Part shown: one piece after another, positions 14,597 through 18,435 of the stretch
Numbering within the stretch: the first letter of the stretch is position 1
Layout of the letters: each line of letters begins with the position of its first letter
Virus record (IMG/VR): IMGVR_UViG_3300014039_000035
Source: an uncultured virus (IMG/VR IMGVR_UViG_3300014039_000035)
Taxonomy: Duplodnaviria; Heunggongvirae; Uroviricota; Caudoviricetes
Direction: 5' to 3' (one strand)
DNA length: 20,000 nt
Position numbers and translations under genes: made by a program
The notes under the pieces: generated by a model
Database searches by the model: none
Seen by the model: the letters and a program-made list of their open reading frames with translations, nothing else
Told to the model about the DNA's origin: nothing

Positions 14597-15307
14597 TCAC
14601 TTTGTGTCGGGAAGCAGACCCTGCGCCTTCTTCCGGGCAATCTCTGCGCTCCAGTCAACCGTGCCGTCCTCCTCGTTCTTAGGAGGGTCAGCCTTGAACG
14701 GCTGCGACGTGTCCACGCCGAGACGGGACACCGCCTTGTTGAAGTAGCCGGACGCCTTCGCCGAAAGCTCCTCAGCGGTCATCTTGCTTCCCGTCGCCTC
14801 GTTCAGCTCCACGGCGCGCTCCCATGCCTCGTCCGCCTGGTCCTTGTACTTCTTGGCGTAGTCGCCGTTGAAGAAGGACTCGTGCGCCGCGCTGAGGGCA
14901 GCCTTCGCTGTGTTCGAGGTCTCCAGAGCCGTAATCTTCTCGTTGAGCGGGGCGACTGCCTCGGCTATGGCCGCCTTGACTATCGATGCGATGTCTGGCG
15001 AGCCTTCACCCTCTTTGCCTTCATTACCCTCGCCCCCCTTGTCCTTGTCTGGCTCCGGGTGCGCCGCCTTGTAAGCCTCAAAAGCACGCTGAGACTCGCT
15101 GTTCCTCTGAATAGCCTGGTCACGCTGCCTCTGAATCTCCTTGGCAATCAAGTCCAACGTGGTCGCGTCAGCAACCGCTCCCTCGATGTCCTCCTCCTTC
15201 TCGACAGTCTTTTCACGAAGCGACGCAATCCTGTCAAGAGCGTCGTTGCTCAATCCGTATGCCTTGTACTTCGTCTTGAGCGCCTCTAAAATCTGTTCTT
15301 TCAACAT
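14597..15307 (-). CDS. Probable capsid scaffolding protein, 236 aa
   Basis: Acidic, Ala/Glu/Lys-rich helical protein with a low-complexity linker (PEPDKDKGGEGNEGKEGEGSP) and an MKEQILEALKTKYKAYGLS-type N-terminus; first gene of the head operon. Confidence 0.7.
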   Translation of the reverse strand: MLKEQILEALKTKYKAYGLSNDALDRIASLREKTVEKEEDIEGAVADATTLDLIAKEIQRQRDQAIQRNSESQRAFEAYKAAHPEPDKDKGGEGNEGKEGEGSPDIASIVKAAIAEAVAPLNEKITALETSNTAKAALSAAHESFFNGDYAKKYKDQADEAWERAVELNEATGSKMTAEELSAKASGYFNKAVSRLGVDTSQPFKADPPKNEEDGTVDWSAEIARKKAQGLLPDTK

Positions 15308-15324: not shown

Positions 15325-15332
15325 CAAAGTTA
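15325..15332 (-). promoter_or_regulatory. Bacteroidetes -7 promoter box (TAACTTTG) driving the head-tail operon
   Basis: Minus strand TAACTTTG-CATAAAAAGTTGGAAT-ATG-like arrangement, with the box 17 nt upstream of the scaffold start codon. Confidence 0.7.
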
Positions 15333-15365
15333 TAAGGATTTTTCTAAAGTTTGGCATAATTTGTG

Positions 15366-15373
15366 TAACTTTG
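15366..15373 (+). promoter_or_regulatory. Bacteroidetes -7 promoter box (TAACTTTG) driving the structured leader and nuclease gene
   Basis: Exact TAnnTTTG match; a TTTG at 15350-15353 gives an atypically short 12-nt spacer. The box sits about 5 nt before the first hairpin of the leader RNA. Confidence 0.65.
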
Positions 15374-15377
15374 TTCC

Positions 15378-15473
15378 GTGTCGAGGTCCAGACGACAAAA
15401 GAAGAAAGTTATACGTCCCCCGTGCGAGTACGTCTGTGCTGGACCCACCGACCGAAAACACGAGGGACTTTTT
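15378..15473 (+). ncRNA. Candidate structured leader / small RNA: kissing-loop hairpin pair with loop-E-like module and U-tract
   Basis: Hairpin 1: TGTCG 15379-83 / CGACA 15393-97, loop AGGTCCAGA. Hairpin 2: outer stem GTCCCCCGTG 15415-24 / CACGAGGGAC 15459-68 (9/10 bp), internal loop containing AGTA and GAA, inner stem GTCTGTG 15432-38 / CACCGAC 15446-52 (6/7 bp), loop CTGGACC 15439-45, which is the exact reverse complement of GGTCCAG 15385-91. TTTTT follows at 15469-73. Confidence 0.65.
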
Positions 15474-15481
15474 GTGTTATC

Positions 15482-16654
15482 ATGGGTATACGAAAAACTC
15501 AAGAGCAATTCATCAAGGAAGCCTATGCACTCCACGGAGACCATTATGACTTCTCAAAAGCCGTCTATACGAACAGCAAAGACAAAATGTCAGTCTACTG
15601 CAACATTCACCACAAATTCTTCTCGACGACGCCAAATCAGATATTGCGTGGTTCGGGTTGCCCGGAGTGCGGACTTGCGTCGAGAATAGCAAAAAGAACC
15701 GACACGACAGAATCTTTCATTGCGAAAGCAAGAAAGGTTCACGGTGACAAATATGATTACTCTAAAGTTGTCTATGAAAAATCAGACATACCGGTGACAA
15801 TCACATGCAAAAAGTGCGGAAAAGACTTCAAGCAGTCACCTAACACTCATCTGATGGGCCACGGATGCGAGGCTTGTTCTTACAAGGAAAGGGGAATCCG
15901 AAGAGCAAAGGGGATTGATATTTTTACGGCCGAGGCAAGAGCTGTATGGGGCGAGGCTTATGACTATTCATCGGTTGTTTACAAAAACAGCAAAACCAGA
16001 GTAGATATAATATGTCCAAAACACGGCGTTTTCTCTACTACACCATATCAACATTTGAAAGAAGGCGTGGGGTGTCCGCAGTGCAAAAGAGAATCCCGGT
16101 TGCTATATGGTATCGCTGTGAACGATGTGCCAAACTGCAATCCTAAATGCTTACAAACCTGGGTTGGGATGTTGCATAGATGTTATTATGAAAAAGAACT
16201 GGAGCGCCATCCGACATACCGTGGATGCTCCGTGTGTGAAGAATGGCTTAGACTGTCTGGATTCGTGCCGTTCTGGGAGGCAAATTATCGCCCAAAATAT
16301 GAGTTGGAGAAAGACATCCTTGTGAAAGGCAATAAAGTGTACAGTCCGGACACTTGTTGCTTTGTGCCACGACGGATTAATCTCCTACTTACAAACAGAA
16401 AGCGATTCCGTGGAAATTTGCCCATCGGGGTGTCACTCTCTGAAAGCGGACTTAGATACAAGGCTACCTATGACAGAGACGCGAAAGCAACACTTGTTGG
16501 GTATTTCGACACGGTAGAAGAAGCATTCCTCGCATACAAAAAAGCAAAAGAAGAATATATCAAGAAGGTGGCGCAAAAATACTACGATTCCGGTAAAATT
16601 GGCCAAAAGGTTCACGAAGCCCTTCTTCGTTATCAAATCGAAATCACCGACTAA
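15482..16654 (+). CDS. Putative homing endonuclease: 3 zinc-ribbon (DUF723-like) repeats + HNH-type nuclease domain + AP2 DNA-binding domain, 390 aa
   Basis: Start taken as ATG 15482 (MGIRKTQEQFIKEA). Three ~70-aa repeats F...A...HG..YD(Y/F)S...Y......V...C..H..F...P..(H)L.G.GC..C, then W..ML.RCY...PTY.GC.VCEEW...LEKDIL.KGNKVYSP.TC.FVP..IN (phage beta-beta-alpha-metal nuclease family), then LPIGVS...YKA...VGYFDT.EEAFLAYKKAK (AP2-like). Confidence 0.85.
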   Translation: MGIRKTQEQFIKEAYALHGDHYDFSKAVYTNSKDKMSVYCNIHHKFFSTTPNQILRGSGCPECGLASRIAKRTDTTESFIAKARKVHGDKYDYSKVVYEKSDIPVTITCKKCGKDFKQSPNTHLMGHGCEACSYKERGIRRAKGIDIFTAEARAVWGEAYDYSSVVYKNSKTRVDIICPKHGVFSTTPYQHLKEGVGCPQCKRESRLLYGIAVNDVPNCNPKCLQTWVGMLHRCYYEKELERHPTYRGCSVCEEWLRLSGFVPFWEANYRPKYELEKDILVKGNKVYSPDTCCFVPRRINLLLTNRKRFRGNLPIGVSLSESGLRYKATYDRDAKATLVGYFDTVEEAFLAYKKAKEEYIKKVAQKYYDSGKIGQKVHEALLRYQIEITD

Positions 16655-16680
16655 TTTATGAATACCGCAGAAATATTTGC

Positions 16681-16688
16681 TATTTTTG
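16681..16688 (+). promoter_or_regulatory. Bacteroidetes -7 promoter box (TATTTTTG) immediately before terL
   Basis: TATTTTTG-CGGT-ATG in the 38-nt gap between the nuclease gene and terL. Confidence 0.6.
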
Positions 16689-16692
16689 CGGT

Positions 16693-18435
16693 ATGTTTAG
16701 ACTTCTAAAAGAACATAAACCCTTTCCCACACAGTATGACCATATTGTGCGCAAAAATCCCACAAAAAACAGCAAGGGATATGACAAAATGGTCGGACCG
16801 GAAGGGGAGTTTTATCTTCGGGACAAAATAGACTTTGCCCCACAAAAAGGTCTTCAAGAAAACGCTTGCCGTGACGATTCTGATGTAATATTCCTTGCCG
16901 GTGCCATTCAGATGGGCAAAACATATTTGCAGATGCTCAAAGCGCTATACGGTATAGACAAACCGGGGTATTCCGGCAGGTTCATTTCAGTAAGACTGCA
17001 AGACTCGAAAAAAGGTAGCTCGCTTTATCGTGACGCCGTGGAGATATGGGGAAACTTTGCGGATTGTCAATACACATCAAGCGATTATCCGGCTTTCACT
17101 TGGCCGCAGACCAATTCAAGTATTCTGATGACGCACTCGAATTTTAATGTGGACAATCCATCGGAATACCTTGATTTTAAGGAGTTTGCCAAGAAGAATA
17201 GTGCCAGTTTTATCGCAGTGGACGAATTTTCAGACATGAGCTTCAAAATGTGGACATATTGGTTCGGGCGAAATCGCGATGCCTCTGGTATGAAACCTTG
17301 TATGATAGCGAGCTTCAATCCCGAATATCAACATTTCTCTACACAGATGCTGCTTGACGGCGGCTATATCGGGAGCGACTACTTCGTTATCCCCGAAATG
17401 GTCGGCAAGCAACGCTTCTTCTACATAGACGGTGACGAACCAGAAAACATCATCTGGGGCGACACAAGAGCGGAAGTGGCTTCAAGAGCCAATATCGTGA
17501 TAACCGAAAAGGAAGCAGCGGCGGGTATCACACCGGAGGATGTGGTCAAATCATTCAATTTCTATACTGGTGAGGCCGCTGACAACTTGAAGCTGTTGAA
17601 TGCCACAAGCGGAGGTGCAATCGCTAATATGCACGCTGTCGGTGGTACGCAAAGAAAAGTCCTTAAACAAGGCTATTTCGGACCTGTGGACAATCTGAAT
17701 CTTACGGTGTCACGAGCGATGATAAGGGACTTGTTTACGAATCCGATATACGGTGAGGAAATGTATGCCACCTTGGATGTCAGCGGTGGCGACACAAATT
17801 CCGACAACTGCCCTATGATAATCTGGGAGGGTCTGCGCATAATAGCAATAGAAATGTTCAAGGGAACGGCAAAGGAGCTTGTTGACTGGATAGGCAGGAT
17901 GCTGAAAAAATACAACGTTCCTATTTATAACTTTTGCTATGACAGTACAGGTATCGGAGGATTCTTGAAATCATATACGGCTGGCGTGCCTATTACAGCG
18001 AATAAGGCGGCTTTCCAAGAATATGATGAGAACGGCAATCCAGTCACAAGCGAATTGTTCTTCAATGTGAGGAGCCAACTTTTGGGGCGAATGAAGGTGC
18101 TAATAGAGACCGGGAAAATCAGCATAGGACTTGCGCCGGAATATCGTCTCTTATACGGCAAAAAAGGCGAGAAACAACGCCTTATAGACATTATCTATAC
18201 AGAAATGGACTTGTTTGCGGTGACAACCAAGAACAAGAGAATTTACTACGAAAGCAAGGATATTTACAAATCTCGCCATCAGAAGAACTCGCCGGACCTT
18301 ATGGACTCCATTTGCCTGCGTGCATACTGGGAGTTGGACGCCCGTCCGAAGAAGCAGCCGTCACCGGAGGTTGAGGACGACGCGTATTTCGGGCTGTACG
18401 AGCAGTGTAACGGAAGGGACGCAATTTGGATATAA
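16693..18435 (+). CDS. terL: Terminase large subunit, 580 aa
   Basis: Q-motif (APQKGLQ), Walker A (GAIQMGKT), Walker B (FIAVDE), coupling motif (ASFNP) and RNase H-like nuclease acidic motifs (YATLDVSGG..SD, CYDSTGIG, SPDLMDS); followed by the portal gene. Confidence 0.93.
   Translation: MFRLLKEHKPFPTQYDHIVRKNPTKNSKGYDKMVGPEGEFYLRDKIDFAPQKGLQENACRDDSDVIFLAGAIQMGKTYLQMLKALYGIDKPGYSGRFISVRLQDSKKGSSLYRDAVEIWGNFADCQYTSSDYPAFTWPQTNSSILMTHSNFNVDNPSEYLDFKEFAKKNSASFIAVDEFSDMSFKMWTYWFGRNRDASGMKPCMIASFNPEYQHFSTQMLLDGGYIGSDYFVIPEMVGKQRFFYIDGDEPENIIWGDTRAEVASRANIVITEKEAAAGITPEDVVKSFNFYTGEAADNLKLLNATSGGAIANMHAVGGTQRKVLKQGYFGPVDNLNLTVSRAMIRDLFTNPIYGEEMYATLDVSGGDTNSDNCPMIIWEGLRIIAIEMFKGTAKELVDWIGRMLKKYNVPIYNFCYDSTGIGGFLKSYTAGVPITANKAAFQEYDENGNPVTSELFFNVRSQLLGRMKVLIETGKISIGLAPEYRLLYGKKGEKQRLIDIIYTEMDLFAVTTKNKRIYYESKDIYKSRHQKNSPDLMDSICLRAYWELDARPKKQPSPEVEDDAYFGLYEQCNGRDAIWI

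Follow-up and report, generated by a model that had tools for sequence, protein, structure and literature searches.

Self-limitation of the expression of free-standing homing endonucleases is known mainly from T-even phages. The homing endonucleases of these phages have been described as being held down by hairpins and weak terminators located 5' of their genes (PMC2988022). For the guanidine-IV RNAs, it has been proposed that two kissed hairpins stretch the linker between them so that the outer pairs of the terminator cannot form (PMC7736828), and single-molecule data describe a kissing loop in competition with a lengthening stem (PMC11611296). In addition, the tables of Fremin et al. 2023 list unnamed candidate RNAs upstream of HNH, NUMOD4 and AP2 genes (PMC10690425). 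The locus described here contains a leader RNA of two hairpins with complementary loops, situated between a promoter and a gene for an HNH/AP2 nuclease.

Genome setting and anatomy of the leader

The DNA analysed (20,000 nucleotides, hereafter the window) represents the final 20 kb of a virus record with a length of 66,465 bases, with genes for tape-measure, capsid, portal and terminase identified by domain and PHROG profile searches. Its terminase was found to share 39% identity with those of Parabacteroides phages PF672P1 and PF672P2 and 23% with that of LoVEphage. The terminase ORF of PF672P1/P2 (L467 and L471, 1777-4617) encodes 946 aa, approximately 370 aa more than that of the window, with the extra part lying near the N-terminus and possibly being an insertion such as an intein. 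Several genes of the window have upstream boxes of the form TAnnTTTG, the Bacteroidetes -7 promoter consensus (PMC7366714).

The leader and its nuclease gene are located between a divergent head operon (start 15307, minus strand) and the gene for the terminase large subunit, terL (16693..18435, plus strand; PHROG 979, E 2.1e-24). The first gene of the operon, which forms the other flank (14597..15307, minus strand), belongs to PHROG 5824 of unknown function, and its position suggests a scaffold-like product. A TAACTTTG box on the minus strand (15325..15332) is the putative divergent promoter of this operon, while the same box on the plus strand (15366..15373) is the predicted promoter of the leader transcript. 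The terminase gene is directly preceded by a separate promoter box, TATTTTTG (16681..16688, plus strand), with a similar box being present in most terL loci, whether filled by a leader and nuclease or empty. This box lies just 3-6 nt before the start codon (window 16681-16695, and most of the terL loci L162-L204), suggesting a leaderless mRNA; such mRNAs are rare in Bacteroides (PMC7366714). An AAAGTT(T/C)GGC...TTTGC-like motif also recurs between the divergent promoters, at 15345-15363 of the window and in the empty-site loci L173, L178, L185 and L200. It is present in both filled and empty loci and is a possible regulator site, with the cassette just downstream.

The whole element covers window positions 15379-15473 and consists of a hairpin (P1), a 17-nt linker, a second hairpin (P2) and a tract of five U residues, with the TAACTTTG box 5 nt upstream and the ATG of the HNH/AP2 gene (15482) 8 nt downstream. 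P1 (15379..15397) is formed by a 5-bp stem (TGTCG 15379-15383 / CGACA 15393-15397), of which all 5 pairs are changed on both sides among homologues, with 98% of alignment cells paired. Its loop carries the 7-mer GGUCCAG (15385..15391), the 5' strand of the putative kissing helix, and, owing to an A-A closing pair, is 9 nt long in the window (A-GGTCCAG-A), compared with 7 nt in most relatives. The A-rich linker (15398..15414) contains a conserved AGAAA (15403-15407) and was found to be 17-21 nt long in 49/49 copies (median 18). P2 (15415..15468), which is supported by covariation, comprises an outer terminator-like stem (15415-15424 / 15459-15468, 9/10 paired), an internal loop, an inner stem (15432-15438 / 15446-15452, 6/7 paired) and a terminal 7-mer, CUGGACC (15439..15445), which is the reverse complement of the loop-1 7-mer and would form the 3' strand of the kissing helix. 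The U5 tract follows (15469..15473), part of what is predicted to be an imperfect terminator tail across the family.

Between its two helices, P2 places AGUA (15427-15430) opposite GAA (15454-15456), the sequence signature of a loop-E or bulged-G motif (15427..15456), and this is at least 90% conserved, a figure partly imposed by the searches since most patterns required these letters. We regard this internal loop as a candidate loop-E/bulged-G/sarcin-ricin module, presumably with the corresponding non-canonical geometry. The sequence-only reading had described the promoter, both hairpins and their stems, the loop-E letters, the U5 tract and the spacing to the ATG, all of which were found in place; its 5-bp P1 and loop 7-mer likewise held, with the difference that the loop comprises 9 nt.

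Considered singly, the window sequence is unremarkable. It was no more stable than shuffled versions (z = +0.33), the proposed fold merely tied the minimum free energy (-21.7 kcal/mol), an extended duplex of loops 1 and 2 was predicted instead when longer context was included, and a terminator scan of the window detected none at the element. Six homologues folded one at a time gave z values of -2.0 to -4.6 and the two-hairpin fold. Evidence beyond chance is comparative. Two single contigs related to this region were observed to differ from it: one departs from the window at 15376, after the promoter, and carries a different P1 hairpin with the loop GGGCCAG, while in the other, at window position 16658, an apparent leader 3' end directly abuts the terL promoter, an arrangement that resembles a deletion of the nuclease. 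Five sequencing runs were also considered (shares of 0.05-0.07); contigs from four of them represent relatives, three are probably DNA, and the element was left uncovered.

The gene behind the leader (15482..16654, plus strand) is predicted to encode a free-standing homing-endonuclease-like protein of 390 aa with matches to PHROG 953 (E 1.4e-67) and PHROG 559 (E 2.3e-67), both annotated as HNH endonuclease. Pfam comparison identified three DUF723/CapR/DUF4379 zinc repeats, an HNH-like core and a weak AP2 domain (E 0.004, below the Pfam cut-off), with a weak AP2 match (E 0.088) being the only one obtained against solved structures. Two further HNH-related ORFs of the same genome have no leader (G000:C1:13854-14288, minus strand, and 28923-29240, plus strand), one being degenerate-looking and the other short and CapR-like. 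In other phages, HNH/AP2 genes at the corresponding position beside the head operon (L006:2960-3090, L010:2910-3000) were observed to follow a different conserved leader, located after a TATATTTG box, which gave no match to the covariance model of the present family.

Homologues, covariation and distribution

The first homologue of the leader was obtained through relatives of the nuclease, and a pattern with a free loop then yielded a compensated variant, GGACCAG/CTGGTCC. Further copies were collected from loci of related terminases and nucleases, with a structural descriptor and by three collection scans. The earliest collection pattern fixed both loops and returned mostly chance matches (collagen-like and RNA-virus genes), together with at least three distinct true elements. 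The least biased pattern, in which both the outer stem and the complementarity of the loops were left free, returned 106 distinct matches. The upstream complement was present in 28/31 of those with 8-9 of 9 outer-stem pairs, the three exceptions being a copy truncated at a contig end and two bacterial-genome matches due to chance, and in 2/75 of those without such a stem, both of which are true members. Covariance models (R1/R2), which omit the pseudoknot and leave the kissing pairs unscored, recovered copies with six loop codes not seen before, every one of them complementary.

In the final set, all 63 distinct complete copies were found to have exactly complementary loops, with 15 different 7-mers. 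In an alignment of 50 distinct rows fitted to the stems and not to the kissing pairs, 348/348 cells of the kissing helix were paired, without a G-U pair and with 6/7 pairs compensated. An unfitted MAFFT alignment gave 217/217. All four helices covary, P1 and the two P2 helices being 94-98% paired (outer helix 94%, with 6/8 pairs compensated; inner helix 94%, 6/8), and slid controls gave 37-44%. The frequent G-U pairs in the stems point to an RNA, transcribed from the plus strand. A tree built without the loops contained 17 code changes, of which at least 13 are needed (58 rows, with few columns and many forks open). Across the family the two-hairpin element is 79-87 nt long, the box precedes P1 by 4-13 nt in 48/48 copies and P2 ends 10-16 nt before the ATG in 45/47. 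Conservation of the unpaired AGUA/GAA and AGAAA nucleotides is at least 70-90%, in contrast to the loop 7-mers, in which every position is variable. On this comparative evidence the leader is a real RNA family, structured and conserved, with a covarying loop-loop helix. It could be assigned to no named family, as had also been the case in the sequence-only reading; Rfam returned no match to the element (E <= 5; E <= 10 over 261 nt), nor to the leaders of eight homologue loci.

A strict TAnnTTTG box was identified within 25 nt upstream of 59/63 copies; two of the remaining four have TAACTTTA, one is cut off and one is without a box. An endonuclease-like ORF lies downstream of 57/63 copies, and scanning of 50 + 14 proteins showed these to be of the NUMOD4/HNH_3, DUF723/HNH/AP2, CapR/HNH and zinc-finger types. 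Identical or near-identical leaders were found to precede different ORFs (L431 and L440; L489 and L475). At least seven insertion sites are represented, with one site carrying up to four codes and one code occurring at two sites; the codes are tied neither to site nor to nuclease family. Of 42 terL loci, nine have a nuclease directly upstream, with the leader present in each, and in ten the head operon adjoins terL with neither leader nor nuclease; the others have different genes before terL or reach a contig end. The promoter, leader and nuclease, being jointly present or absent at the terL site, behave as one inserted cassette.

The leader model matched 27/46 records of the phage group and 11/13 near-complete ones, many of these having been chosen as carriers. 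A second copy in the same genome, outside the window (G000:C1:9142-9238, minus strand; L466:3143-3239), carries the code GTGGAAG/CTTCCAC and precedes a gene for a 189-aa NUMOD4/HNH_3/NUMOD1 protein. In an additional 39 phage records, whose selection did not rest on carriage of the leader, three divergent copies were found in as many records, all upstream of ORFs other than nucleases (L506:1501-1598, minus strand; L502:1501-1598, plus strand; L503:1501-1597, minus strand). The L506 copy differs entirely in its code (CTTGCAC), has a loop 2 of 9 nt and is followed at normal spacing by a gene for a DNA polymerase processivity factor. These three copies are either orphans or signs of a wider use of the leader. 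Three more copies are without an intact nuclease: nothing of one follows in L429, a 3' remnant follows in L459, and in L341 another ORF has been inserted. In the last case, a 357-aa ORF that appears transposase-like by eye was observed after position 96, replacing the nuclease start. An intact nuclease start is missing downstream of 6/63 copies, and the association of the leader with nucleases is therefore not absolute.

In a bacterial genome collection the loop complement was present in 0/39 pattern matches, and the covariance model gave 0/4 and 0/151 on sampled bacterial genomes. Comparison with annotated phages by blastn yielded a single 24-nt chance match, and the model found nothing credible on PF672P1, PF672P2, LoVEphage, C3_41T2LP and Dulem virus 40 (best E 0.14), so that the carriers identified include no cultured phage. 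Among the sequences searched, the family was found solely in phages.

In RNA-guided systems of the HEARO/OMEGA kind, an RNA is obligately linked to one nuclease family and a guide within it matches the target. As the leader adjoins both the nuclease gene and terL in the window, it could in principle serve the nuclease as a guide or as a cofactor, the latter being a role that the sequence-only reading had itself held to be less likely, or act as a packaging RNA for the terminase; we regard this as highly improbable. Relatives of the window nuclease were present at 80 loci, of which 75 gave no match to the model, the remaining five being known carriers, and four nuclease architectures share the RNA. 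A guide role was rejected, the codes neither recurring in the flanks nor being enriched downstream, and with it a HEARO/OMEGA-type RNA-guided HNH. A packaging RNA was likewise rejected: the leader is missing from the ten empty terL loci, most copies lie far from terL, and the leader tracks the nuclease and not terL.

Proposed attenuator model and alternative readings

The reading favoured here, held with somewhat better than even confidence, is that the ~95-nt leader acts as a leaky, ligand-free transcription attenuator in cis, in which competition between kissing and the terminator sets read-through and keeps the nuclease scarce. Transcription would start just before P1, which would fold first and be followed by the upper part of P2, so that intramolecular pairing of loops 1 and 2 could precede formation of the lower P2 stem. 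Closure of the lower stem and of the AGUA/GAA loop would pull the ~18-nt linker nearly taut, and the kissed state would thereby compete with closure of the terminator. The race between the two would set a small read-through fraction with no need of a ligand, most transcripts being released at the U-tract with a length of ~95 nt. Within this model, kissing is somewhat more likely than not to favour read-through; alternatively, kissing together with docking of AGAAA to the loop-E motif would help the terminator to fold.

By a crude A-form estimate, each linker step would span 1.6-1.8 A while the outer stem is open and 4.4-4.9 A once it has closed, which suggests that with P2 closed it would be strained, though not impossibly so, and that kissing with a closed P2 would not be forbidden. 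The tail of the family contains 3-7 U in its first 8 nt (median 5). Positions -14 to -3 of leader genes average 7.2 T, compared with 3.0 for 56 mechanically called ORFs of the same genome, whose starts are A-rich, unlike the U-rich leader tail. The U-tracts are interrupted, some having 3 U in 8, and often start 1-4 nt past the stem, and P2 with its tail is predicted to be an imperfect intrinsic terminator. These tract features weigh against the model, as do the miss by the terminator scan, the extended duplex predicted for the window copy, the six copies lacking an intact nuclease start and the two HNH-like ORFs that have no leader. The tight spacings, the U-rich tail, the guanidine-IV topology and the linker strain lead us to favour a ligand-free attenuator, and the repression of T-even endonucleases (PMC2988022) supplies the motive. 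A cis-regulatory attenuator had already been proposed for this locus; a structured RNA does lie between promoter and start codon, for which attenuation is the simplest reading, with termination and switching as its predicted parts.

The narrow P2-to-ATG distance, 10-16 nt in all but two of 47 copies, could also reflect an element that acts after transcription, in which the folded pseudoknot would tune ribosome loading, or protect or destabilise the mRNA, with termination being incidental. An A is present at -3 in 32/47 copies, and seg43(25) has been described as having a stable hairpin immediately 5' of its RBS (PMC2988022). The same spacing would be fixed equally by a terminator, however, the start codon lies outside the stem, and forcing the kissed state shifts the predicted accessibility of the start merely from 0.43 to 0.49. 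Pairing of the linker with the tail is without covariation, its energy being -3.43 kcal/mol for own, -3.42 for crossed and -3.47 for shuffled combinations (45 copies), and a translational switch by such pairing was rejected. An action after transcription is judged quite unlikely.

The conservation of the unpaired AGUA/GAA and AGAAA nucleotides, among loops that vary freely, would suit a switch in which these nucleotides are bound by a small molecule or by a protein of phage or host, with a resulting shift in the balance between kissing and terminator, and the architecture matches that of a ligand-gated class, guanidine-IV (PMC7736828). Ligand binding by guanidine-IV involves loop nucleotides that are highly conserved (PMC7736828), whereas no position of the leader 7-mers is fixed. 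No metabolite is suggested by the downstream genes, control of the leader by its own nuclease is difficult to reconcile with four unrelated nuclease architectures, and the search patterns account for part of the AGUA/GAA conservation; gating by a factor is considered improbable.

The diversity of the codes raises a further reading, which extends the attenuator by feedback in trans. Released ~95-nt leaders would capture loop 1 of transcripts with the same 7-mer, block the kiss in cis and force termination, so that a cassette would be active on entry into a naive cell but silent in one that already contains its code. The occurrence of 15 codes without a mismatched form is consistent with this, as are the independence of codes from site and nuclease family and the precedent of the P4 CI RNA for termination triggered in trans (PMC4825925). 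A shared code was found in 0/29 within-genome pairs from 11 multi-copy phages, near-duplicate records having been merged or dropped and sites assigned by hand. This distinctness is not significant, however, with 2.3 shared pairs expected when codes are drawn freely (P 0.08) and 0.55 when drawn by site (P 0.55), and the earlier suggestion that the loop pair is a specificity code was not borne out by it. In addition, one base is all that separates 3/24 co-resident pairs, the narrow range of linker lengths favours a geometry in cis, and the own code recurs in 0/49 downstream stretches of 300 nt, with 1.0 expected. Feedback in trans is held to be unlikely. The same doubt attaches to the fuller proposal that these are selfish endonuclease cassettes with an RNA-only, self-addressed switch, in which the kiss in cis antiterminates and the terminated leader blocks leaders of the same code in trans. 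Were it true, the cassette would sense its own kind in the cell, and a minimum of 15 naturally occurring, interchangeable addresses for attenuators would be available.

Comparison with known RNA systems

The lysine riboswitch (RF00168) is a five-way junction aptamer found upstream of lysine genes. It had been put forward as an analogy on the strength of its loop E and kissing loops, but was rejected: the leader consists of two hairpins spanning 79-87 nt, has no Rfam match and is closer in architecture to guanidine-IV. Among catalogued candidates, DNAVirus_8377 of Fremin et al. resembles the leader in being 105 nt long, in carrying a terminator flag, in lying upstream of HNH_3/NUMOD4/AP2/GIY-YIG genes and, where hosts are assigned, in having Bacteroidetes hosts (PMC10690425). 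It is merely listed there, with 3 covarying bases, and the likeness is one of description and not of alignment. With DNAVirus_8377 compared by description, the family appears to be uncatalogued. No description of the leader RNA was present among the listings returned by literature searches. The parts of the main text consulted mention neither HNH nor kissing in PMC5737381 and neither 'kissing' nor 'HNH' in PMC10690425, and six motif spellings of the leader were not found in the three PMC10690425 files searched.

The P4 CI RNA (seqA/seqC) and the P1 C4 RNA (RF01695) also have short complementary boxes in a promoter-proximal leader that precedes a potentially harmful gene (PMC4825925, PMC3632133, PMC2864571). 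The leader differs in showing no evident processed internal antisense RNA and in the genes regulated, and the Rfam C4 models gave no match to it (E <= 5; E <= 10 on 261 nt) or to the leaders of eight homologue loci. P4 has the seqA/seqC layout (PMC4825925), and in this class target boxes lie on either side of the antisense RNA, whereas the leader code is not repeated downstream in any of the 49 copies, for which reason a C4/CI-type organisation, as originally suggested, is not supported.

The T-even genes I-TevI/II/III, segB, mobE, segF and seg43(25) likewise have RNA structure 5' of a homing endonuclease gene, with expression thought to be limited by it, and mobE shares the weak U-tract of the leader (PMC2988022). 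As described in the part of that source used here, the T-even elements are either simple terminators or single hairpins in which the RBS is masked and a late promoter is embedded, with a loop-loop helix not being described (PMC2988022). In the leader, structure is again found 5' of a free-standing endonuclease gene; a hidden start with an embedded promoter is not, the whole RNA lying downstream of its promoter and its stem ending 10-16 nt before the ATG, which leaves the start uncovered.

The nearest working analogue is the guanidine-IV RNA (GGAM-1 or mepA motif, with the Gd4v variant; PMC7736828, PMC11611296, PMC9788692), in which, as in the leader, a 5' hairpin loop kisses the loop of a second, terminator-based hairpin within a 5' leader, with a linker that closure would stretch. 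The kissing architecture is present in the leader in that stems and loop-loop helix covary, its terminator role being predicted. Differences lie in the AGUA/GAA internal loop of the leader P2 and in the genes that follow, guanidine-IV preceding transporters of the sugE/mepA type or acetyltransferases and the leader an endonuclease-like ORF in 57 of its 63 copies, the other six being without a transporter. The loop nucleotides of guanidine-IV are highly conserved as a ligand pocket, whereas among the 15 loop 7-mers of the leader just the pairing is kept, and the leader is probably without a ligand, unlike guanidine-IV. The leader belongs to none of the families tested. Its 15 codes form a natural variant set of a guanidine-IV-like geometry of kissing loop and terminator, apparently ligand-free, which makes the proposed stretched-linker mechanism directly testable, and its variants could supply compact regulatory parts for Bacteroides. 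Set beside the T-even elements, the leader would represent a different and portable solution in Bacteroidetes-type phages, with one RNA fold used by four nuclease architectures at many sites.
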